Shown here piece after piece: positions 1-11,136 of a stretch of 16,972 nt of DNA. The notes below the pieces were generated by a model, which saw only the letters and a program-made list of their open reading frames with translations, was not told where the DNA came from and ran no database searches. The translations under genes were made by a program, and so were the position numbers. The first letter of the stretch is position 1, and each line of letters begins with the position of its first letter. This DNA comes from a virus (lineage: Duplodnaviria > Heunggongvirae > Uroviricota > Caudoviricetes), in the IMG/VR virus record IMGVR_UViG_2693429635_000010, one strand, 5' to 3'.

Positions 1-815
1 CTGCCACCATGGCACTGCGCGTTAAACACGGAGAGGTCAGCACGAAACTGTGTCAGCATGGCTGTAAACAGCGCAGGTTGCTGTGCGTGGGTGGTGGCGC
101 TCATGTCAAACTCTCCCTGCATCCAGCACACCGCCAGCAACACATTTTTCGGGTTCTTCTGTAATGCAGCTTTGGTGCGCGCAATCAGGTCCTGATATAA
201 CGGTTTACCCACACCCCAGCGTGCCGAATCCTGGCTGGCCCCCGTGTCTGCACTGAATGTCCCCTCAGCGCCCTGGGTGAATGCAGAACCACCACGACAG
301 CATGGTACCAGCAGGATCCCCGCGTTATTCGGGATATACGGAAGCAGTTTTTTGGCAATATGTAAGCCCTGGCCGACACAGCCGTACTGCCCTTTGCTCA
401 GGTCTGCCTTCGGATGATTCAGCGTACTCATATCCTGCACATCATGCAGACAGTGGTCAGCCGGGATGATGTCGTTATACGTACAACTCTCTCCACCCGG
501 AGTTACCGTGCTGCGGCGCGCCAGCTGTTTAATGCGCGGATCCGGAGCATCGTAAGAATCCGGTAACGGAAGCCCTTCACCGTAGGCCATGCCGTTGGAC
601 TGTCCGGCAAGCACAACCACATAGAACCAGTCCGGCTCAGATGAAGGGCCGACCTGTGGATCTCCTTCAATAGCCACCGCCTGCATCAGTGTGTACGGCG
701 TAATGGCAACCGGTCCGCCATATGGCTGCCAGCCCTCTTTCAGTTTGTGTGTCAGCTTTTCCGCAAGGTCTGACGGCGACGCCGCCCTGACAACATCATA
801 GTGTTTAAATGCCAT
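1..815 (-). CDS. Sialate O-acetylesterase-like protein (NanS-p family: DUF1737-like N-terminus plus SGNH/SASA esterase domain); N-terminal ~271 codons only, 3' end runs off the left window edge
   Basis: Hand translation of the minus strand from ATG at 813-815 (GGGAGG 4 nt upstream) is open to position 1: MAFKHYDVVRAASPSDLAEKLTHKLKEGWQPYGG...VVLAGQSNGMAYGEGLPLPD... The GQSN block is the SASA/SGNH esterase signature. Absent from the ORF track because no stop codon lies inside the window. Confidence 0.6.
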   Translation of the reverse strand, partial: MAFKHYDVVRAASPSDLAEKLTHKLKEGWQPYGGPVAITPYTLMQAVAIEGDPQVGPSSEPDWFYVVVLAGQSNGMAYGEGLPLPDSYDAPDPRIKQLARRSTVTPGGESCTYNDIIPADHCLHDVQDMSTLNHPKADLSKGQYGCVGQGLHIAKKLLPYIPNNAGILLVPCCRGGSAFTQGAEGTFSADTGASQDSARWGVGKPLYQDLIARTKAALQKNPKNVLLAVCWMQGEFDMSATTHAQQPALFTAMLTQFRADLSVFNAQCHGG

Positions 816-1008
816 GAATCCTCCCGGCCGGGATAATATTGTGAGTAAAATGAGGAGCGGGCTGAAGTCCGGAAGTTACAGGACAATGGCAGAAGAGAGA
901 CAACAGCCCGCAATACGAAAAAGGCCGCGCTATTGCGCAGAGTGATTACTGTCGGATATTATTCGCCAGCTGAAATATTACTTCACGTTTTGTTGTTTAT
1001 TCCTTGCC

Positions 1009-1037
1009 GCCCGCGTCTCCCTGCGCGGGCTTTTTTT
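1009..1037 (+). terminator. Rho-independent terminator oriented on the plus strand
   Basis: Perfect 7-bp GC-rich stem GCCCGCG (1009-1015) / CGCGGGC (1024-1030), 8-nt loop, followed by TTTTTTT (1031-1037). On the minus strand the hairpin is preceded, not followed, by the run, so it acts only on rightward transcripts. Confidence 0.5.
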
Positions 1038-1040
1038 GTC

Positions 1041-1068
1041 CATAAGAAAGCCCCTCCGGAGAGGGGCT
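1041..1068 (-). terminator. Possible minus-strand terminator hairpin
   Basis: Perfect 8-bp stem AGCCCCTC / GAGGGGCT (1049-1068) with 4-nt loop; on the minus-strand RNA it is followed by UUCUUAU. The U tract is interrupted, so weaker than the others. Confidence 0.3.
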
Positions 1069-1263
1069 GGAGAGTGGCGCTATGTGCCATTGCATGGTGC
1101 CGGGTGCCTCCCGGTGAATTCAGTACCAGCACCTGAATCCGCGATTATCCCATATACCTACTCGCTGATTGCCCCTCCGCACAGGGGGATTCACCATGCC
1201 AGTTTCTTTTAACAAACTCCCCGCAAACCAGACAACAGTCAACCGCCTGAATTGTGAGACATT

Positions 1264-1290
1264 TAAAAAAAAGGCCCGCAAAAGCGAGCC
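1264..1290 (-). terminator. Rho-independent terminator immediately 3' of the tRNA cluster
   Basis: Minus-strand RNA GGCUCGC-UUUU-GCGGGCC (7-bp stem with one G-U pair) followed by 8 U (plus-strand A run 1265-1272); 14 nt downstream of the tRNA-Arg 3' end. Confidence 0.55.
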
Positions 1291-1304
1291 AGGGAAAATA
1301 AGTG

Positions 1305-1381
1305 TGGCGCGTTGTACTGGATTCGAACCAGTGACCGATTGCTTAGAAGGCAATTGCTCTGTCCGGCTGAGCTAACAACGC
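1305..1381 (-). tRNA. tRNA-Arg (anticodon UCU)
   Basis: 77-nt cloverleaf read by hand on the minus strand: acceptor GCGTTGT/ACAACGC, D arm GCTC...GAGC, anticodon stem ATTGC/GCAAT with loop CTTCTAA, T arm ACTGG-TTCGAAT-CCAGT, discriminator G, encoded CCA. Position matches the argO-type tRNA of lambdoid late regions. Confidence 0.85.
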
Positions 1382-1394
1382 ATGATGCAGATAA

Positions 1395-1471
1395 TGGACC
1401 GCCATCGGGGACTTGAACCCCGCGCAGCCAGCTTCGAAGGCTGGCGCTCTTTCCTGATGAGCTAATGGCGG
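1395..1471 (-). tRNA. tRNA-Arg (anticodon UCG as read from loop CTTCGAA)
   Basis: 77-nt cloverleaf on the minus strand: acceptor CCGCCAT/ATGGCGG (7 bp), D arm GCTC...GAGC, anticodon stem CCAGC/GCTGG, T arm CGGGG-TTCAAGT-CCCCG, discriminator T, encoded CCA. Unusual C1-G72 first pair. Confidence 0.75.
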
Positions 1472-1478
1472 TATGTGA

Positions 1479-1554
1479 TGGTGGCCCTTGCTGGATTTGA
1501 ACCAGCGACCTGGCGATTATGAGTCGCTCGCTCTCACCACTGAGCTAAAGGGCC
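1479..1554 (-). tRNA. tRNA-Ile2 (anticodon CAU, lysidine type; ileZ-like; a plain CAU reading would be tRNA-Met)
   Basis: 76-nt cloverleaf on the minus strand: GGCCCTT acceptor, D arm GCTC-AGTGGTGA-GAGC, anticodon loop CTCATAA, T arm GCTGG-TTCAAAT-CCAGC, AAGGGCC-A-CCA. Closely resembles E. coli ileX/ileY as I recall them. Confidence 0.8.
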
Positions 1555-1603
1555 GGAAGCAGAATAATAATGGTGCGTAATTAATTCTGCAATCTCATCC
1601 GTT

Positions 1604-2533
1604 TCAAACGATTAAATCCTGAACTTCCCTGACTGTCTGCTCAAAACGTCCGGTCTCCAGCTCAACACCAATCGCACGACGCCCCAGTGCCATCGCCGCT
1701 TTTACCGTTGAACCCGACCCCATGAAAAAATCCGCAACCAGATCACCAGGACGACTACTTGCGCTGATTATCTGCTGCAGCATTTCTGCCGGTTTTTCGC
1801 ACGGATGTTTCCCGGGATAGAACTGCACCGGTTTATGTGTCCACACATCCGTGTACGGCACCTGCGCCGTCACACCAAAATACCGCCGCAGATGCTTATA
1901 TTCACTCTGCAGCTCCACATACTGCCGGTTCAGTGACGTATACGTATCCACCAGCTGGTGGTGGGGCTTTTCCAGTTCACCGCGCTGATGTTTCTCTTCT
2001 GCCACCCGGGCAAACAGCGACTGTAATTTCAGATAATCGCTTTCGTTCGGTAGCTGCCACTGACTGGCACTGAACCAGTGCGACACCATGTTTTTCTTTC
2101 CTGTGGCATCTGCAATCTGTTTTGCCGTTATCCCCAGGGCCGCGCGCGCATCACGAAAGTAAGAAATCAGCGGGGCCATCACATGCTGTTTCAGTGCACT
2201 GCCCTTCGCCGCATACCCGGCATCTTTCGGACGATACGGCCCCTGATAATGTTCCGCGAACAGAATGCGCTCTGTGACGGGGAAATACGCCCGCAGGCTT
2301 TCCTTGTTGCATCCGTTCCAGCGTCCGGACGGCTTCGCCCAGATAATATGGTTCAGCACACTGAAGCGTTCACGCATCATGATTTCGATATCAGATGCCA
2401 GGCGATGACCACAGAACAGGTAAAGACTTCCGGCAGGTTTCAGCACCCGCCAGAACTGCGCCAGACACTGGTCCAGCCACTTCAGGTAATCATCGTCGCC
2501 CTTCCACTGGTTATCCCAGCCCTCAGGCTTCAC
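1604..2533 (-). CDS. DNA methyltransferase (beta-class N6-adenine/N4-cytosine type); 5' boundary uncertain, the DPPY motif lies upstream of the first canonical start codon
   Basis: ORF-track protein ends with motif I (HPCEKP...DFFMGSGST). Extending the frame 5' by hand gives stop-LINADCLEFIRSLPENSVDLIVTDPPYFK-V(GTG at 2531-2533), so catalytic motif IV (DPPY) is in frame but has no ATG/GTG/TTG ahead of it. Confidence 0.6.
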   Translation of the reverse strand: MKPEGWDNQWKGDDDYLKWLDQCLAQFWRVLKPAGSLYLFCGHRLASDIEIMMRERFSVLNHIIWAKPSGRWNGCNKESLRAYFPVTERILFAEHYQGPYRPKDAGYAAKGSALKQHVMAPLISYFRDARAALGITAKQIADATGKKNMVSHWFSASQWQLPNESDYLKLQSLFARVAEEKHQRGELEKPHHQLVDTYTSLNRQYVELQSEYKHLRRYFGVTAQVPYTDVWTHKPVQFYPGKHPCEKPAEMLQQIISASSRPGDLVADFFMGSGSTVKAAMALGRRAIGVELETGRFEQTVREVQDLIV

Positions 2534-2790
2534 TTTAAAGTACGGCGGGTCCGTGACTATCAGGTCAACAGAATTTTCGGGTAACGACCGGATAAATTCC
2601 AGGCAGTCGGCGTTGATTAACTAACAACTGGATATTTTTACAGTATTAAGCATGGATCATTAAGCCTGTCTCTGATAGGCTCATTCTGCTTTTGCGCAAA
2701 GCAGTGGGCCTGAGGTTTGCTTGTGAACCCAACGCATGAGCAGATGGCTGGTGGGTGCCCCTAACACCTACCAGCCGCCCATTTACCACA

Positions 2791-2817
2791 AATAAAAAAG
2801 CCTTTACTGCGGAAGGC
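2791..2817 (-). terminator. Putative rho-independent terminator overlapping the stop codon of the small ORF
   Basis: Minus-strand RNA GCCUU-CCGCAGUA-AAGGC (5-bp stem, 8-nt loop containing the UAA stop) followed by UUUUUUAUU. Confidence 0.4.
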
Positions 2818-3001
2818 GTCTGTAACAACCGAACTGATAGTCTGCCAGACCCGCCATAACCAGCTGGGTCAGTATTAACTGGCAGCGTTCGCGTGAAAGG
2901 TAAGTATTCTGCGCAATCTCCCCGACTGTCGCCGGGTCGGTAACGCTTAATTCATTAAACACCACTCTGGCGGTTTCTGTCATATCCTGCTGTTTTAGCA
3001 T
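2804..3001 (-). CDS. Small hypothetical protein (65 aa), possible helix-turn-helix DNA-binding protein
   Basis: Internal ATG of track ORF 2804..3124 with AGGGA ~8 nt upstream: MLKQQDMTETARVVFNELSVTDPATVGEIAQNTYLSRERCQLILTQLVMAGLADYQFGCYRRLPQ. The track's longer N-terminal extension is hydrophobic low-complexity and overlaps the tR'-like terminator. Sits between two terminators. Confidence 0.4.
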   Translation of the reverse strand: MLKQQDMTETARVVFNELSVTDPATVGEIAQNTYLSRERCQLILTQLVMAGLADYQFGCYRRLPQ

Positions 3002-3124
3002 GTCTTTTTCCCTTTTCCGGTTAACGTGACACACCAATAACTCTTGTCGAAAAAGCCAGCAAGCTGAAAGAACGGTATTAATAACCACCAGCGAATTTAT
3101 TGCGCTGCTGTATATTACGGACAC

Positions 3125-3146
3125 AAAAAAACCACCTTCCGGTGGC
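3125..3146 (-). terminator. tR'-like rho-independent terminator ~100 nt downstream of the Q gene
   Basis: Minus-strand RNA G-CCACC-GGAA-GGUGG followed by 7 U (plus-strand A run 3125-3131). Position relative to Q mirrors the lambda pR'/tR' (6S RNA) layout. Confidence 0.55.
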
Positions 3147-3242
3147 TTCCTTGTGCGAAAAAACTTGCATTTCGCCTCGCGATACAGCTTTGCGAAGCTT
3201 ACAGGAATTCAAGCTGTTTCTGCGTAAAAAAGCAAGCTTTTT
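3147..3242 (-). promoter_or_regulatory. Putative late promoter (pR'-like) and Q-utilisation region between the Q stop codon and the tR'-like terminator
   Basis: Positional inference from lambdoid architecture only; several TTG.../TA...T hexamers are present on the minus strand but none could be fixed confidently by eye. Confidence 0.3.
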
Positions 3243-3785
3243 TTATCGAAATGAATCGTGCATAGGTACATAAAGCATGTGTTCAGCCACGGCTAACCAA
3301 CCTGCAATACGTTTCTCACATGTGCTGAAACACCATTCCGGGTGAGTACGATTTAAACATTCTGCCATTTTTCTCTTACTCATTCCCCGTCCTTCGTACC
3401 TTTGCCGGAGAATATTGATTAGCCCGGGATATTCCCCAAGCACCTCACTGATAACGCGATCAATAATCAACGCCTCTGTGTCTGTACAATGTGACAACCA
3501 GCTCTTCTGCTTCCCTCTGGTCATATCCCGAAAAAATGCCTCAAGTTCCGGTTTTTCCAGCCCGGATTTCTTCATGCTGCGTAAAACCTCATTAACTGCT
3601 GTTTTCGTCAGCTTTTTCGAAACCAGTAACCGGTTAAACATATTTCCGGATTTACCCCCACCGATATACGACCACCGCCCCCACATCCGTAATTTCCCCT
3701 GGATCCAGACTGCTTCCAGCGTGTTCAGGCGTAAATGTTCGCCGCTTTTGCCTGTAATTTCCGGATATATCATATTTACGCTCAC
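3243..3785 (-). CDS. Late-gene antitermination protein Q (phage 21/82-type Q family)
   Basis: 180-aa ORF directly downstream of rusA with overlapping stop/start (GTGA), followed by the tR'-like terminator; N-terminal LRMWGRWSY motif resembles the ERWGAW motif I recall from QuuD-type Q proteins. Confidence 0.55.
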   Translation of the reverse strand: MSVNMIYPEITGKSGEHLRLNTLEAVWIQGKLRMWGRWSYIGGGKSGNMFNRLLVSKKLTKTAVNEVLRSMKKSGLEKPELEAFFRDMTRGKQKSWLSHCTDTEALIIDRVISEVLGEYPGLINILRQRYEGRGMSKRKMAECLNRTHPEWCFSTCEKRIAGWLAVAEHMLYVPMHDSFR

Positions 3786-4141
3786 TCACTCTCAATTTTG
3801 TAAATCTTCACACCCAGCCGTCCACCAGATACTGGCTGACCACGTACAATATTGATTTCATCAAACTGCTCGTCATCAATGAGCACTCCCGCATGCGTCA
3901 GCGCATCCAGCGGTGCTTTCAGAATATTGTCCAGGTCACGACGACGCTTATCCGGTGGCTCTGCAATAATTTTTATTGCCAGCCGTCCGGACAGGCTTAA
4001 TTTCAGTCGCTGCTGGCGAACAATAAGCGCCACTGCCCGGCGATAACGCTCCCCGGCTTTTGATACAAAATATGTGCTGCCACGACGTCGCCAGTAAGTG
4101 TTCACTGTCGGCGGGTAAGGTAAAACCAAATCTATGAGCAT
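3782..4141 (-). CDS. rusA: Holliday-junction resolvase RusA
   Basis: 119-aa ORF with strong RBS (AGAGGTG, 5-nt spacer). Motifs LPYPPTVNTYWRRRG and RRRDLDN...DALTHAGVLIDDEQ match the RusA family as I recall the E. coli K-12 sequence. Confidence 0.8.
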   Translation of the reverse strand: MLIDLVLPYPPTVNTYWRRRGSTYFVSKAGERYRRAVALIVRQQRLKLSLSGRLAIKIIAEPPDKRRRDLDNILKAPLDALTHAGVLIDDEQFDEINIVRGQPVSGGRLGVKIYKIESE

Positions 4142-5201: not shown

Positions 5202-5480
5202 TTACCTCCAGATGCGTTGCTGGAATGTGCGGGACGGACGCGGTGGTCGTTCGGAGTAAGGAAGCCTGACGGAGATTATCCAGTGACGATAATCGAGGCT
5301 GAGGGCTTTCTTAATCTCGTATCCGTGTCTGCGGTAGCACTGAATTAGCCACTCGGCCTGTTCTTCAGTGCATGGGGGATGCTGGAACCAGTCAGATTTG
5401 AAAGTGCGGGAACGCCGCCCGTGCCTGCTGGCAGGGGCGGCAGAGTTATCCGAATTGTAAAATTTGGTATCGTGCGCCAT
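5202..5480 (-). CDS. Hypothetical nin-region protein (92 aa), paralogue of 10055..10333
   Basis: Internal ATG of track ORF 5202..5609: MAHDTKFYNSDNSAAPASRHGRRSRTFKSDWFQHPPCTEEQAEWLIQCYRRHGYEIKKALSLDYRHWIISVRLPYSERPPRPSRTFQQRIWR. About 80% identical to the copy-B paralogue, supporting a real gene; weak RBS. Confidence 0.45.
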   Translation of the reverse strand: MAHDTKFYNSDNSAAPASRHGRRSRTFKSDWFQHPPCTEEQAEWLIQCYRRHGYEIKKALSLDYRHWIISVRLPYSERPPRPSRTFQQRIWR

Positions 5481-5549
5481 CTGTTTTCTCTGCTGGCGCA
5501 GCAGGTGCCAGTTGTTCAGGCTGACGGATGGATTGTAAACCAGAACGAC

Positions 5550-5579
5550 CAGAAAAAACAAAACCCGCCGAAGCGGGTT
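5550..5579 (-). terminator. hok mRNA 3' terminator
   Basis: Minus-strand RNA AACCCGC-UUCG-GCGGGUU followed by UUUUGUUUUUU (plus-strand A-rich run 5551-5561). Confidence 0.5.
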
Positions 5580-5647
5580 AAGTGCGGGTGCGTTGAGGAT
5601 GCCTGACACATCAGAGGTGGCGAGGGATTTCTCCCCCGCCAGGTCTC

Positions 5648-5803
5648 TTACTCCTCAGGTTCGTAAGCTGTGAAGACAGCGACCTCCGTCTGGCCGGTTC
5701 GGATTCGTACCTCGCAGAGGTCTTTCCTCGTTACCAGTGCCGTCACTATGACGGTTAAACAGATGACGATCAGGGCGATTAACATCGCCTTTTGCTGCTT
5801 CAT
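5648..5803 (-). CDS. hok: Hok-family type I toxin (51 aa, HokD-like)
   Basis: MKQQKAMLIALIVICLTVIVTALVTRKDLCEVRIRTGQTEVAVFTAYEPEE, embedded in track ORF 5648..5860; matches the Hok/Gef consensus, and I recall HokD (RelF) of E. coli as identical. Confidence 0.85.
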   Translation of the reverse strand: MKQQKAMLIALIVICLTVIVTALVTRKDLCEVRIRTGQTEVAVFTAYEPEE

Positions 5804-5993
5804 AGCCTGCTTCTCCTTGCCTTTCGGCACGTAAGAGGCTAACCTACATTTGTGAGACATAGATTGGGCCTCAGATTAATGTTAAGCGTCTTGCAGGACG
5901 CGTAATGTTAACTGGGGCTTTTCTCTATCTGCCTTTTGGTGTTCATGCCTGAGACAGATAGCCTCAAGCACCCGCAGCAATTCTACTTAACTC
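5804..5993. promoter_or_regulatory. hok mRNA leader (mok / fold-back region) with the expected antisense Sok RNA gene on the plus strand
   Basis: Established hok/sok architecture. An inverted repeat CTATCTG...CAGATAG is visible near 5925-5958. Sok promoter and ends were not mapped. Confidence 0.4.
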
Positions 5994-6049
5994 TCCTTTT
6001 CCCGCAAACCGTTTTTACCCGATATGGGAATTCCCATATCGTAATGAAT

Positions 6050-6154
6050 TCAGTTCCCTAGTCGATCCATCAAAAACACAACCAGGCAGTAAACGCCCAC
6101 AACAGCAACAACAGCCAGCGCACCTTCCATTGCCAGTGATATATCATCCGACAT
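6050..6154 (-). CDS. Small hydrophobic peptide (34 aa, single predicted TM helix), not in the ORF track
   Basis: Hand translation: GGAGGGAAT-ATG then MSDDISLAMEGALAVVAVVGVYCLVVFLMDRLGN-TGA. A diverged homologue sits at the same relative position beside the second hok locus (11159..11248). Confidence 0.35.
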   Translation of the reverse strand: MSDDISLAMEGALAVVAVVGVYCLVVFLMDRLGN

Positions 6155-10791: not shown

Positions 10792-10947
10792 TTACTCCTC
10801 AGGTTCGTAAGCTGTGAAGACAGCGACCTCCGTCTGGCCGGTTCGGATTCGTACCTCGCAGAGGTCTTTCCTCGTTACCAGTGCCGTCACTATGACGGTT
10901 AAACAGATGACGATCAGGGCGATTAACATCGCCTTTTGCTGCTTCAT
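10792..10947 (-). CDS. hok: Hok-family type I toxin (51 aa), second copy
   Basis: Encodes the same 51-aa protein as 5648..5803, embedded in track ORF 10792..11004. Confidence 0.85.
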   Translation of the reverse strand: MKQQKAMLIALIVICLTVIVTALVTRKDLCEVRIRTGQTEVAVFTAYEPEE

Positions 10948-11136
10948 AGCCTGCTTCTCCTTGCCTTTCGGCACGTAAGAGGCTAACCTAGATTTGCCGT
11001 TCATAGATTGAGCCTCAGATTAATGTTAAGCGTCTTGCAGGACGCGTAATGTTAACTGGGGCTTTTCTCTATCTGCCGTTGGTGTTCATGCCTGAGACAG
11101 ATAGCCTCAAGCACCCGCAGCCATTCTACTTAACTC
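10948..11136. promoter_or_regulatory. hok mRNA leader / expected antisense Sok region (second copy)
   Basis: Near-identical to 5804..5993. Confidence 0.4.

Follow-up and report, generated by a model that had tools for sequence, protein, structure and literature searches.

A toxin-free moron site in a lambdoid prophage late operon and the two convergent small RNA genes that it appears to carry

Organization of the interval between the tRNA cluster and the esterase gene

The stretch of DNA analysed here (the window, 16,972 nucleotides) is, from its gene order and annotation, the late region of a lambdoid prophage whose late genes are read on the minus strand. On that strand the order is a Q-like DUF1133 protein, a methylase (DNA methyltransferase), a group of tRNAs, the interval under study (1304-816), an esterase, a holin and a lysozyme. 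The interval occupies positions 816-1304, between the end of tRNA-Arg(TCT) and the esterase start at 815. The phage tRNA cluster (1305..1554, minus strand), which was located with ARAGORN and by Rfam tRNA matches and is annotated both in Sakai and by PGAP, comprises a tRNA(CAT) at 1554-1479 that Sakai and PGAP label ileZ/tRNA-Ile, tRNA-Arg(TCG) at 1471-1395 and, as called by ARAGORN, tRNA-Arg(TCT) at 1381-1305, all on the minus strand. On the other side, positions 1..815 (minus strand) hold the 5' part of a NanS-p-type esterase gene, annotated as such by PGAP, and the N-terminus of its product carries DUF1737 and SASA sialate O-acetylesterase domains according to Pfam. The esterase ATG lies at 815-813 and its GGAGG ribosome-binding site at 824-820 on the minus strand. 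Several E. coli chromosomes, for example that of strain 22-245 from chicken meat, are 100% identical to window 1-4000. Positions 816 to 1304 correspond to the usual moron-site region of a lambdoid late operon, here in a toxin-free form: the interval has Q and the late-promoter region on one side and the lysis genes on the other, and relatives carry variable cargo at a fixed junction within it.

An earlier, sequence-only reading of this DNA had found no credible open reading frame on the coding strand of the interval, and the lack of one was borne out. The open reading frames within it encode 32-77 aa, and a Pfam search of six of them gave no match at E<=0.01. The only RefSeq/PGAP annotation in the interval is a pseudo 'hypothetical protein' fragment at 1084-1209 on the plus strand. 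When Stx1A/B and Stx2A/B were compared with the window by tblastn, nothing was returned below E=1.

We scanned positions 600-1700 with a terminator consensus, using dinucleotide-preserving shuffles as the control, and observed 6 terminator-like sites, compared with 1.4 +/- 1.3 in the shuffled sequences. All three hairpin terminators reported previously were recovered at their places, but two of the three end small RNA genes and are not free-standing insulators. The tRNA-cluster intrinsic terminator (1265..1290, minus strand; stem 1290-1273, T8 at 1272-1265; -13.8 kcal/mol) lies directly 3' of tRNA-Arg(TCT), and the same hairpin is found between argO and stx2A in the Stx2 phage Sp5. The intrinsic terminator of the plus-strand RNA (1009..1037, plus strand) has its stem at 1009-1030 and a T7 (U7) run at 1031-1037, with a predicted energy of -16.7 kcal/mol. 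That of the minus-strand RNA (1041..1068, minus strand; -17.3 kcal/mol) has its stem at 1068-1049, followed by TTCTTATG, and a U-rich tail, UUUCUUAU; the 1068-1049 hairpin corresponds to the terminal helix of the Rfam STnc100 model. The last T of the plus-strand tail is at 1037, and the Rfam match to STnc100 stops at 1038. The two hairpin-plus-tail units stand tail to tail, a few nt apart (about 10 nt between the terminators).

The scan also detected a weak terminator-like hairpin in the esterase leader (915..940, minus strand), absent from the earlier list, with a stem at 940-925 followed by CCTTTTTCGT, a tail that reads CCUUUUUCGU and a predicted energy of -9.1 kcal/mol. In the alignment with Sp5 its stem is kept and its loop differs. 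Read on the plus strand, these bases fold into a stem-loop inside the small RNA encoded there, with an A-rich stretch just before it. A candidate anti-terminator pairing (909-915/931-937) in competition with this hairpin was dropped, as by eye it is not kept in Sp5. The terminator that follows the tRNAs appears to act as an insulator and, together with the weak hairpin at 925-940, probably limits read-through into the esterase and lysis genes.

Two convergent small RNA genes

When scanned against all of Rfam, the minus strand proved to match STnc100 (RF02076) over the whole model at 1228..1038, with a score of 138 bits against a gathering score of 47, an E value of 1.8e-31 and coverage of model positions 1-206 out of 206. 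We aligned 18 STnc100 copies, which came from phages, E. coli, E. albertii, E. ruysiae and Shigella. RNAalifold returned 34 consensus pairs for these copies, and 11 of the 34 keep pairing through changes on both sides. In the helix 156-163/174-181, for instance, 9 sequences have GC at pair 158/179 and 8 have AU. The single-sequence minimum-energy fold has the same core helices (z -2.0). Among the aligned copies the 5' third and the central loop vary, and the core helices and terminator are conserved. An exact-motif scan of one genome per species contributed little taxonomic breadth, with 4 loci only, one of them a probable contaminant. The properties of the STnc100 family that can be assessed from sequence, namely a full-length score, covariation and a 3' Rho-independent terminator, are all present, and the minus-strand element is a structured RNA gene of this family. 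Its probable extent is 1038..1255 (minus strand; cmscan match 1038-1228), and it represents the EcOnc05 allele of the Sakai prophage Sp4.

A candidate -10 element for this gene, TTAAAT at 1261..1266 on the minus strand, was recognized from a conserved motif. Of the 18 aligned copies, 12 are preceded by T(G/T)TTAAAT-N3-CTCACAATTCAG or by a sequence close to it, and these include 4 of the 5 copies in L016. The hexamer (1266-1261) overlaps the T-run of the tRNA terminator, and neither a promoter scan nor a listing of the upstream sequences revealed a recognizable -35 element upstream of the gene. From the -10 motif and published northern sizes, the 5' end of the RNA would lie at about 1253-1255 and the transcript would be 211-218 nt long, close to the northern band of about 222 nt for EcOnc05, the identical Sp4 allele.

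Between argO1 and ECs_1088, prophage Sp4 of E. coli O157:H7 Sakai has the same sequence as window 760-1319 (100% identity), and Sp4 is likewise without stx. Tree 2014 crosslinked Hfq to RNA in Sakai and described convergent small RNA genes at the moron site 3' of PR' (PMC4104026), in prophages Sp3, 4, 5, 9, 10, 11, 15 and 17 (PMC4104026). For Sp4, Table S2 of that study lists EcOnc05 on the late-gene strand (about 222 nt) and EcOnc08 and EcOnc21 on the opposite strand (about 271 nt); EcOnc05 was seen by Hfq-CRAC in 5 of 5 datasets, and the corresponding pair in Sp5 is EcOnc27 and AsxR, 3' of stx2B (PMC4104026). We mapped Sp4 onto the window as genome coordinate = 1180973 minus window position, with zero offset. 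Placement of the published peaks rests on an offset between Sakai genome versions, inferred from internal consistency, which is zero at Sp4 and at Sp5 and Sp15 amounts to about +137 to +142. Zero was taken at Sp4 because with any other value the convergent peaks would not meet at the convergent terminators, and the Sp5 offset was checked against the published position of AsxR, 282 bp 3' of stx2B. With the inferred zero offset, the EcOnc05 peak falls at window 1167..1059 on the minus strand, inside the STnc100 match, and the EcOnc08 and EcOnc21 peaks fall at 963-1035 and 872-957, respectively, on the plus strand. EcOnc15 of Sp15 was rejected as a relevant RNA, since it sits between Q and stx1A, outside the interval.

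A second line of evidence for the plus-strand RNA comes from enteropathogenic E. coli (EPEC). Prophage PP6 of strain E2348/69 differs from window 780-1183 by two mismatches, with one mismatch within 816-1037. Table S6 of Pearl Mizrahi 2021 lists an EPEC small RNA at 1444797-1444978 on the minus strand, with EcOnc08/21/42 as homologues (PMC8550237). This RNA corresponds to window 856-1037 on the plus strand, and its 3' end is the last T of the plus-strand terminator, at 1037. The identity to Sp4, the PP6 match and the two supplementary tables together place an Hfq-dependent small RNA at 856..1037 on the plus strand, with a 5' end perhaps at about 844. It is the RNA known as EcOnc08/EcOnc21 in Sakai Sp4, EcOnc42 in Sp15 and 'E2348C_1409.E2348C_1408.IGR' in EPEC E2348/69 (182 nt), and it converges on STnc100 and runs antisense to the esterase leader. 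The previous suggestion that the plus-strand terminator stops real antisense transcription proves right: a documented small RNA ends at this terminator. On the strength of the literature on identical or near-identical sequence, both RNAs of the interval are expected to be expressed and to bind Hfq.

The scan for σ70-like promoters found only one on the plus strand, a predicted element at 809..837 consisting of ATGCCA, a 17 nt spacer and GATAAT (832-837). This putative promoter overlaps the esterase start codon (813-815) and adjoins the GGAGG at 820-824, and its hexamers are conserved in PhiR5_1 and Sp5. Transcription from it would start at about 843-846 and give an RNA of about 194 nt. The length estimates differ, with 182 nt for EPEC, about 194 nt from the promoter scan and about 271 nt from the Sakai northern for EcOnc08/21, and the 5' end is uncertain because the 271 nt northern species exceeds both of the other values. 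The EPEC estimate fits the 809-837 promoter better than a start for a 271-nt RNA at about 767. Such an RNA, starting at about 767 inside the esterase gene, was set aside, as the scan gave no promoter there and the fold had a z score of -0.47. Outside the terminator, the fold of the plus-strand RNA was no better than that of shuffled sequence (z -1.3 and -0.5). A putative seed, CCUUGCC (CCTTGCC at 1002..1008, plus strand), adjoins the terminator stem on its 5' side and is complementary to GGCA(A/G)GG. The RIL-seq targets of the EPEC small RNA share this GGCA(A/G)GG motif (PMC8550237), and its partners include the cfa 5'UTR (767 chimeras), the dppA 5'UTR (197), tir and emrA (PMC8550237).

Comparison with characterized RNAs places both genes more precisely. 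The window copy of STnc100 has the multi-helix core and the terminator of STnc100/EcOnc05 and the same location, after Q, the tRNAs and whatever cargo is present and before the esterase, and the Sp4 copy is 100% identical. The allele of Stx2 phages (EcOnc27/sRNA103; 207.7 bits) differs from it in the 5' third and the central variable loop. When overexpressed, that allele increases fimZ and espA transcripts; its sequence variants track with HUS risk, and STnc100-family RNA is present in outer-membrane vesicles. Pairing of the Stx2-phage allele with stxB has been proposed (PMC12370729); this cannot apply in the window because there is no stxB upstream. The plus-strand RNA has the same terminator, 3' end (1037) and CCUUGCC seed as EcOnc08/EcOnc21/EcOnc42 and the E2348C_1409-1408 intergenic RNA, and the Sp4 sequence is identical. 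In E2348/69 an ISEc13 insertion truncates the neighbouring STnc100 gene, whereas the window keeps both partners intact.

Two other groups of prophage RNAs were considered and rejected. AsxR and AgvB (Rfam RF02703 and RF02702) occupy the same place and orientation as the plus-strand RNA, being convergent with STnc100, antisense to late transcription and Hfq-bound. However, they are 51-60 nt long with a conserved 3' region of about 42 nt, whereas the plus-strand RNA is about 180-270 nt and has no such region. Neither family matched window 900-1080 (181 nt) even at E<=10, and membership was therefore rejected. PasD1 and PasD2 of EPEC (EcOnc13 homologues) are likewise encoded just upstream of a sialate esterase gene in a prophage, and STnc100 and PasD have been proposed to be related RNAs linked to the esterase gene, with shared ancestry and structure (Zhu, Shabalina and Storz, bioRxiv 2026). 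The PasD northern probe CATGCGCAGCCAGAACTCACAAGG and its complement are absent from both strands of the window, and the reported PasD seed UGUGAG does not occur in the minus-strand RNA. In view of the missing probe sequence, an assignment of the minus-strand RNA as PasD was rejected.

The cargo junction and its relation to Stx phages

A base-by-base comparison with Sp5 located the cargo (moron) insertion point at 1258..1266 on the minus strand, a 9 nt segment reading TTAAATGTC. In Sp5 these 9 nt are replaced by a stx2AB cassette of 1,339 bp (L004 3055-4393). The two sequences are identical through the terminator hairpin and six T's to position 1267, and identity resumes at TCACAATTCAG, at 1257. 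The order in Sp5 is ileZ-argN-argO, the same terminator hairpin, stx2A, stx2B, STnc100, a convergent AsxR and the esterase ECs_1207; cmscan gave 207.7 bits for its STnc100 (EcOnc27) and 88.1 bits for AsxR. This confirms the expectation that in Stx phages the toxin genes lie between these tRNAs and the esterase. The Stx1 phage Sp15, which is 98.7% identical to window 816-1121, rejoins the alignment at nearly the same right-hand boundary.

Relatives carry stx2AB (Sp5), stx1AB (Sp15) or TerB and DUF3927 genes (the E. coli prophage locus L017) as cargo, and Sp4, phi296 and the window carry none. In L017, where the junction was not mapped to the base, TerB and DUF3927 lie between the tRNAs and STnc100, and the convergent partner is AgvB (96.5 bits). 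PhiR49_2 has the same RNA module with a holin gene in place of the esterase, and strain 2014C-4135 has four tandem STnc100 copies. About 440 bp of the interval thus form a conserved module of two convergent small RNA genes and the esterase leader, which Stx phages keep downstream of stxB.

Compared with the stx moron site of 933W/Sp5 and Sp15, the window has the same backbone order and the same flanks of the cargo point and is without the stx cassette. An Stx-converting prophage has stxA and stxB between Q/tRNAs and esterase; here the interval runs on without a break, and 9 nt stand where the cassette would be. Together with the tblastn result, this upholds the earlier proposal that the prophage is a toxin-less relative of Stx phages, and the alignment with the Stx phage interval suggested at that time fixes the insertion point. 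The description of the interval as an empty, gene-free slot did not survive: it holds two convergent small RNA genes, and only about 9 nt constitute the cargo site.

Interpretation of the locus

By a wide margin of confidence, the best explanation of these observations is a toxin-free moron site with two convergent small RNA genes, one of the STnc100 family on the minus strand and one of the EcOnc08/21 type on the plus strand. Three other readings were weighed against it. The STnc100 element might not be an independent gene but a structured 3' trailer or leader that arises when polymerase reads through the tRNA terminator (in Stx phages, the 3'UTR of the stx mRNA) and is released by processing. 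There is indeed no convincing -35 element upstream; the element immediately follows the tRNAs here and lies 3' of stxB in Sp5, and two northern species (about 235 and 247 nt) have been reported for the Sp5 allele. On the other hand, a motif of the T(G/T)TTAAAT-N3-CTCACAATTCAG type precedes most copies whatever stands upstream, a -13.8 kcal/mol terminator with its T8 run lies immediately before the element, and the predicted 211-218 nt fit the northern band of about 222 nt for the identical Sp4 allele, all of which make a processed trailer improbable.

Still less probable is the view of the sequence-only reading, in which the slot is empty and gene-free and the hairpins do nothing but insulate the flanking transcription units. 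The enrichment of terminator-like hairpins, the lack of stx and of any credible protein gene and the lack of functional RefSeq annotation would all fit it. Nevertheless, positions 1038-1228 match an Rfam family with covarying helices at full length and with a high score, identical sequence gives rise to two Hfq-bound RNAs in Sakai and near-identical sequence to a RIL-seq small RNA in EPEC, the cargo site amounts to 9 nt only, and the RNA module is retained downstream of stxB in Stx phages. As a complete account this view is refuted because of the Rfam match and the identity to experimentally detected RNAs. We give the least credence of all, hardly any, to the idea that the interval encodes a small protein, whether of 67 aa (933-1136, plus strand), of 58 aa (1036-1212, plus strand) or from the PHANOTATE open reading frames of phage phi296. 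Its basis is the entry 'hypothetical protein (x3)' in phage records under the match and the PGAP pseudo-CDS at 1084-1209 (plus strand), yet PGAP itself marks this CDS as an incomplete pseudogene, and a Pfam match is lacking for all six open reading frames that were searched. Moreover, the homologues vary as structured RNAs do, by indels of arbitrary length and by compensatory base-pair changes, and the 946-1037 part is swapped for AsxR in Sp5.

In the favoured arrangement of two convergent small RNA genes, the minus strand would present, in order, the tRNA terminator, the cargo junction of about 9 nt and the STnc100 gene with its own -10-like element and terminator. The convergent gene of about 182-194 nt would occupy the opposite strand, and the weak hairpin and the esterase ribosome-binding site would follow. 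In a lysogen, both genes would produce Hfq-bound regulatory RNAs, whose hairpin-plus-U-tail ends may both stop transcription from either side and provide the usual Hfq-binding 3' end. The CCUUGCC segment of the plus-strand RNA would pair with GGCA(A/G)GG sites of host mRNAs, for example in the leaders of cfa and dppA, as judged from the literature on near-identical sequence. It is established for lambdoid phages that Q-modified polymerase ignores terminators, and after induction polymerase so modified, coming from the late promoter, would be expected to pass the minus-strand terminators and reach the esterase and lysis genes. The present data directly show the identity of the sequence, its membership in the family, the covariation of the structure and the place where cargo inserts; expression, Hfq binding and targets come from the literature on identical or near-identical sequence, and the promoters, 5' ends and Q read-through are predictions.

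The promoter of the plus-strand RNA overlaps the esterase start codon and the body of the RNA is perfectly complementary to the esterase leader, and we therefore propose, as a speculative and rather unlikely extension, that besides acting on cfa and dppA this RNA might also brake leaky expression of the esterase-holin-lysin operon in the lysogen, through cis antisense action and transcription interference. The tail-to-tail terminators would then form a two-way insulator that only Q-modified polymerase overrides.

The two-RNA content of the interval is already known biology, and the value of the present analysis lies in annotation: RefSeq marks a pseudo "hypothetical protein" where two Hfq-dependent regulators are encoded. 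The stx2 cassette site, between the tRNA terminator and the start region of STnc100, provides a landmark when Stx phages and toxin-free relatives are compared, and the junction is also useful for studies that link variation just downstream of stx2B to disease outcome (PMC12711010). The interval is common, with part or all of it matched in 2,865 of 5,426 complete E. coli genomes; the match covers at least 80% of the interval in 978 genomes, and in 729 records the best match has at least 99% identity.

Small-RNA gene arrays and a split gene pair

Among the relatives, E. coli 2014C-4135 (locus L016, NZ_CP027310) carries five copies of the STnc100 small-RNA gene, at 2727-3706 and 5465-5677. Four of the five are arranged head to tail in tandem upstream of the esterase gene, and the fifth lies about 1.8 kb farther upstream. 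The TGTTAAAT...CTCACA motif is present in each of the four copies closest to the esterase gene (L016a-d), the first three of which have their own terminator. E. albertii (L010) and phage PhiR5_2 (L015) each carry two copies, and arrays of small-RNA genes thus accumulate at the site upstream of the esterase gene. In prophage PP6 of EPEC E2348/69 (L018, 612-1985), the STnc100 gene has lost its 5′ part through an ISEc13 insertion. The convergent plus-strand small RNA is intact there, indicating that natural uncoupling of the two partners is possible.

The STnc100 5′ motif and the PasD seed

Alignment of 18 STnc100 copies revealed that the motif CUCACAAUUCAG, located at 1247-1258 (−) in the window, is conserved at the 5′ ends of most copies. 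This motif contains CUCACA, an exact match to the target motif reported from EPEC RIL-seq for the seed (UGUGAG) of PasD1 and PasD2. It is therefore tempting to speculate, from this sequence match, that PasD-type RNAs could bind STnc100-type RNAs by base-pairing at their 5′ ends.

Annotation and coordinates in public records

Opposite the STnc100 gene, PGAP places a pseudo hypothetical-protein CDS ('incomplete, partial') at window 1084-1209 (+), and likewise at L008 4084-4209 and L007 1769-1894, and its annotation contains no ncRNA at any of these sites. In the same interval of phage phi296 (L013), PHANOTATE calls three hypothetical proteins. These protein calls look like systematic mis-annotation of an RNA locus. 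The tRNA gene at 1479-1554 (−) is called tRNA-Met(CAT) by ARAGORN; an identical or near-identical gene is ileZ/tRNA-Ile in Sakai and PGAP annotations, the CAT anticodon presumably being lysidine-modified.

An 888-bp contig labelled 'Xanthomonas pisi' DSM 18956 (NZ_JPLE01000080.1) contains the 3′ end of stx2B, STnc100 (207.7 bits) and AsxR (88.1 bits), the two RNAs having the same scores as in Sakai Sp5. The contig almost certainly entered the assembly as a contaminant from E. coli or an Stx2 phage. The Sakai coordinates in Table S2 of Tree et al. (2014) appear to agree with NC_002695.2 at Sp4 (~1.18 Mb), whereas for Sp5 (1.27 Mb) and for Sp15 (2.92 Mb) they appear to be offset from it by ~137-142 bp, a shift that must be corrected when EcOnc peaks are mapped onto this current RefSeq record.

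Putative hok/sok loci

Elsewhere in the prophage, two segments match the sok antitoxin RNA (RF01794) over its full length: 5798-5973 (−; 120 bits), adjoining a PGAP-annotated hokD (~5939-6094), and 10942-11116 (−; 107 bits). The two matches imply that the prophage may carry two hok/sok-type toxin–antitoxin loci.
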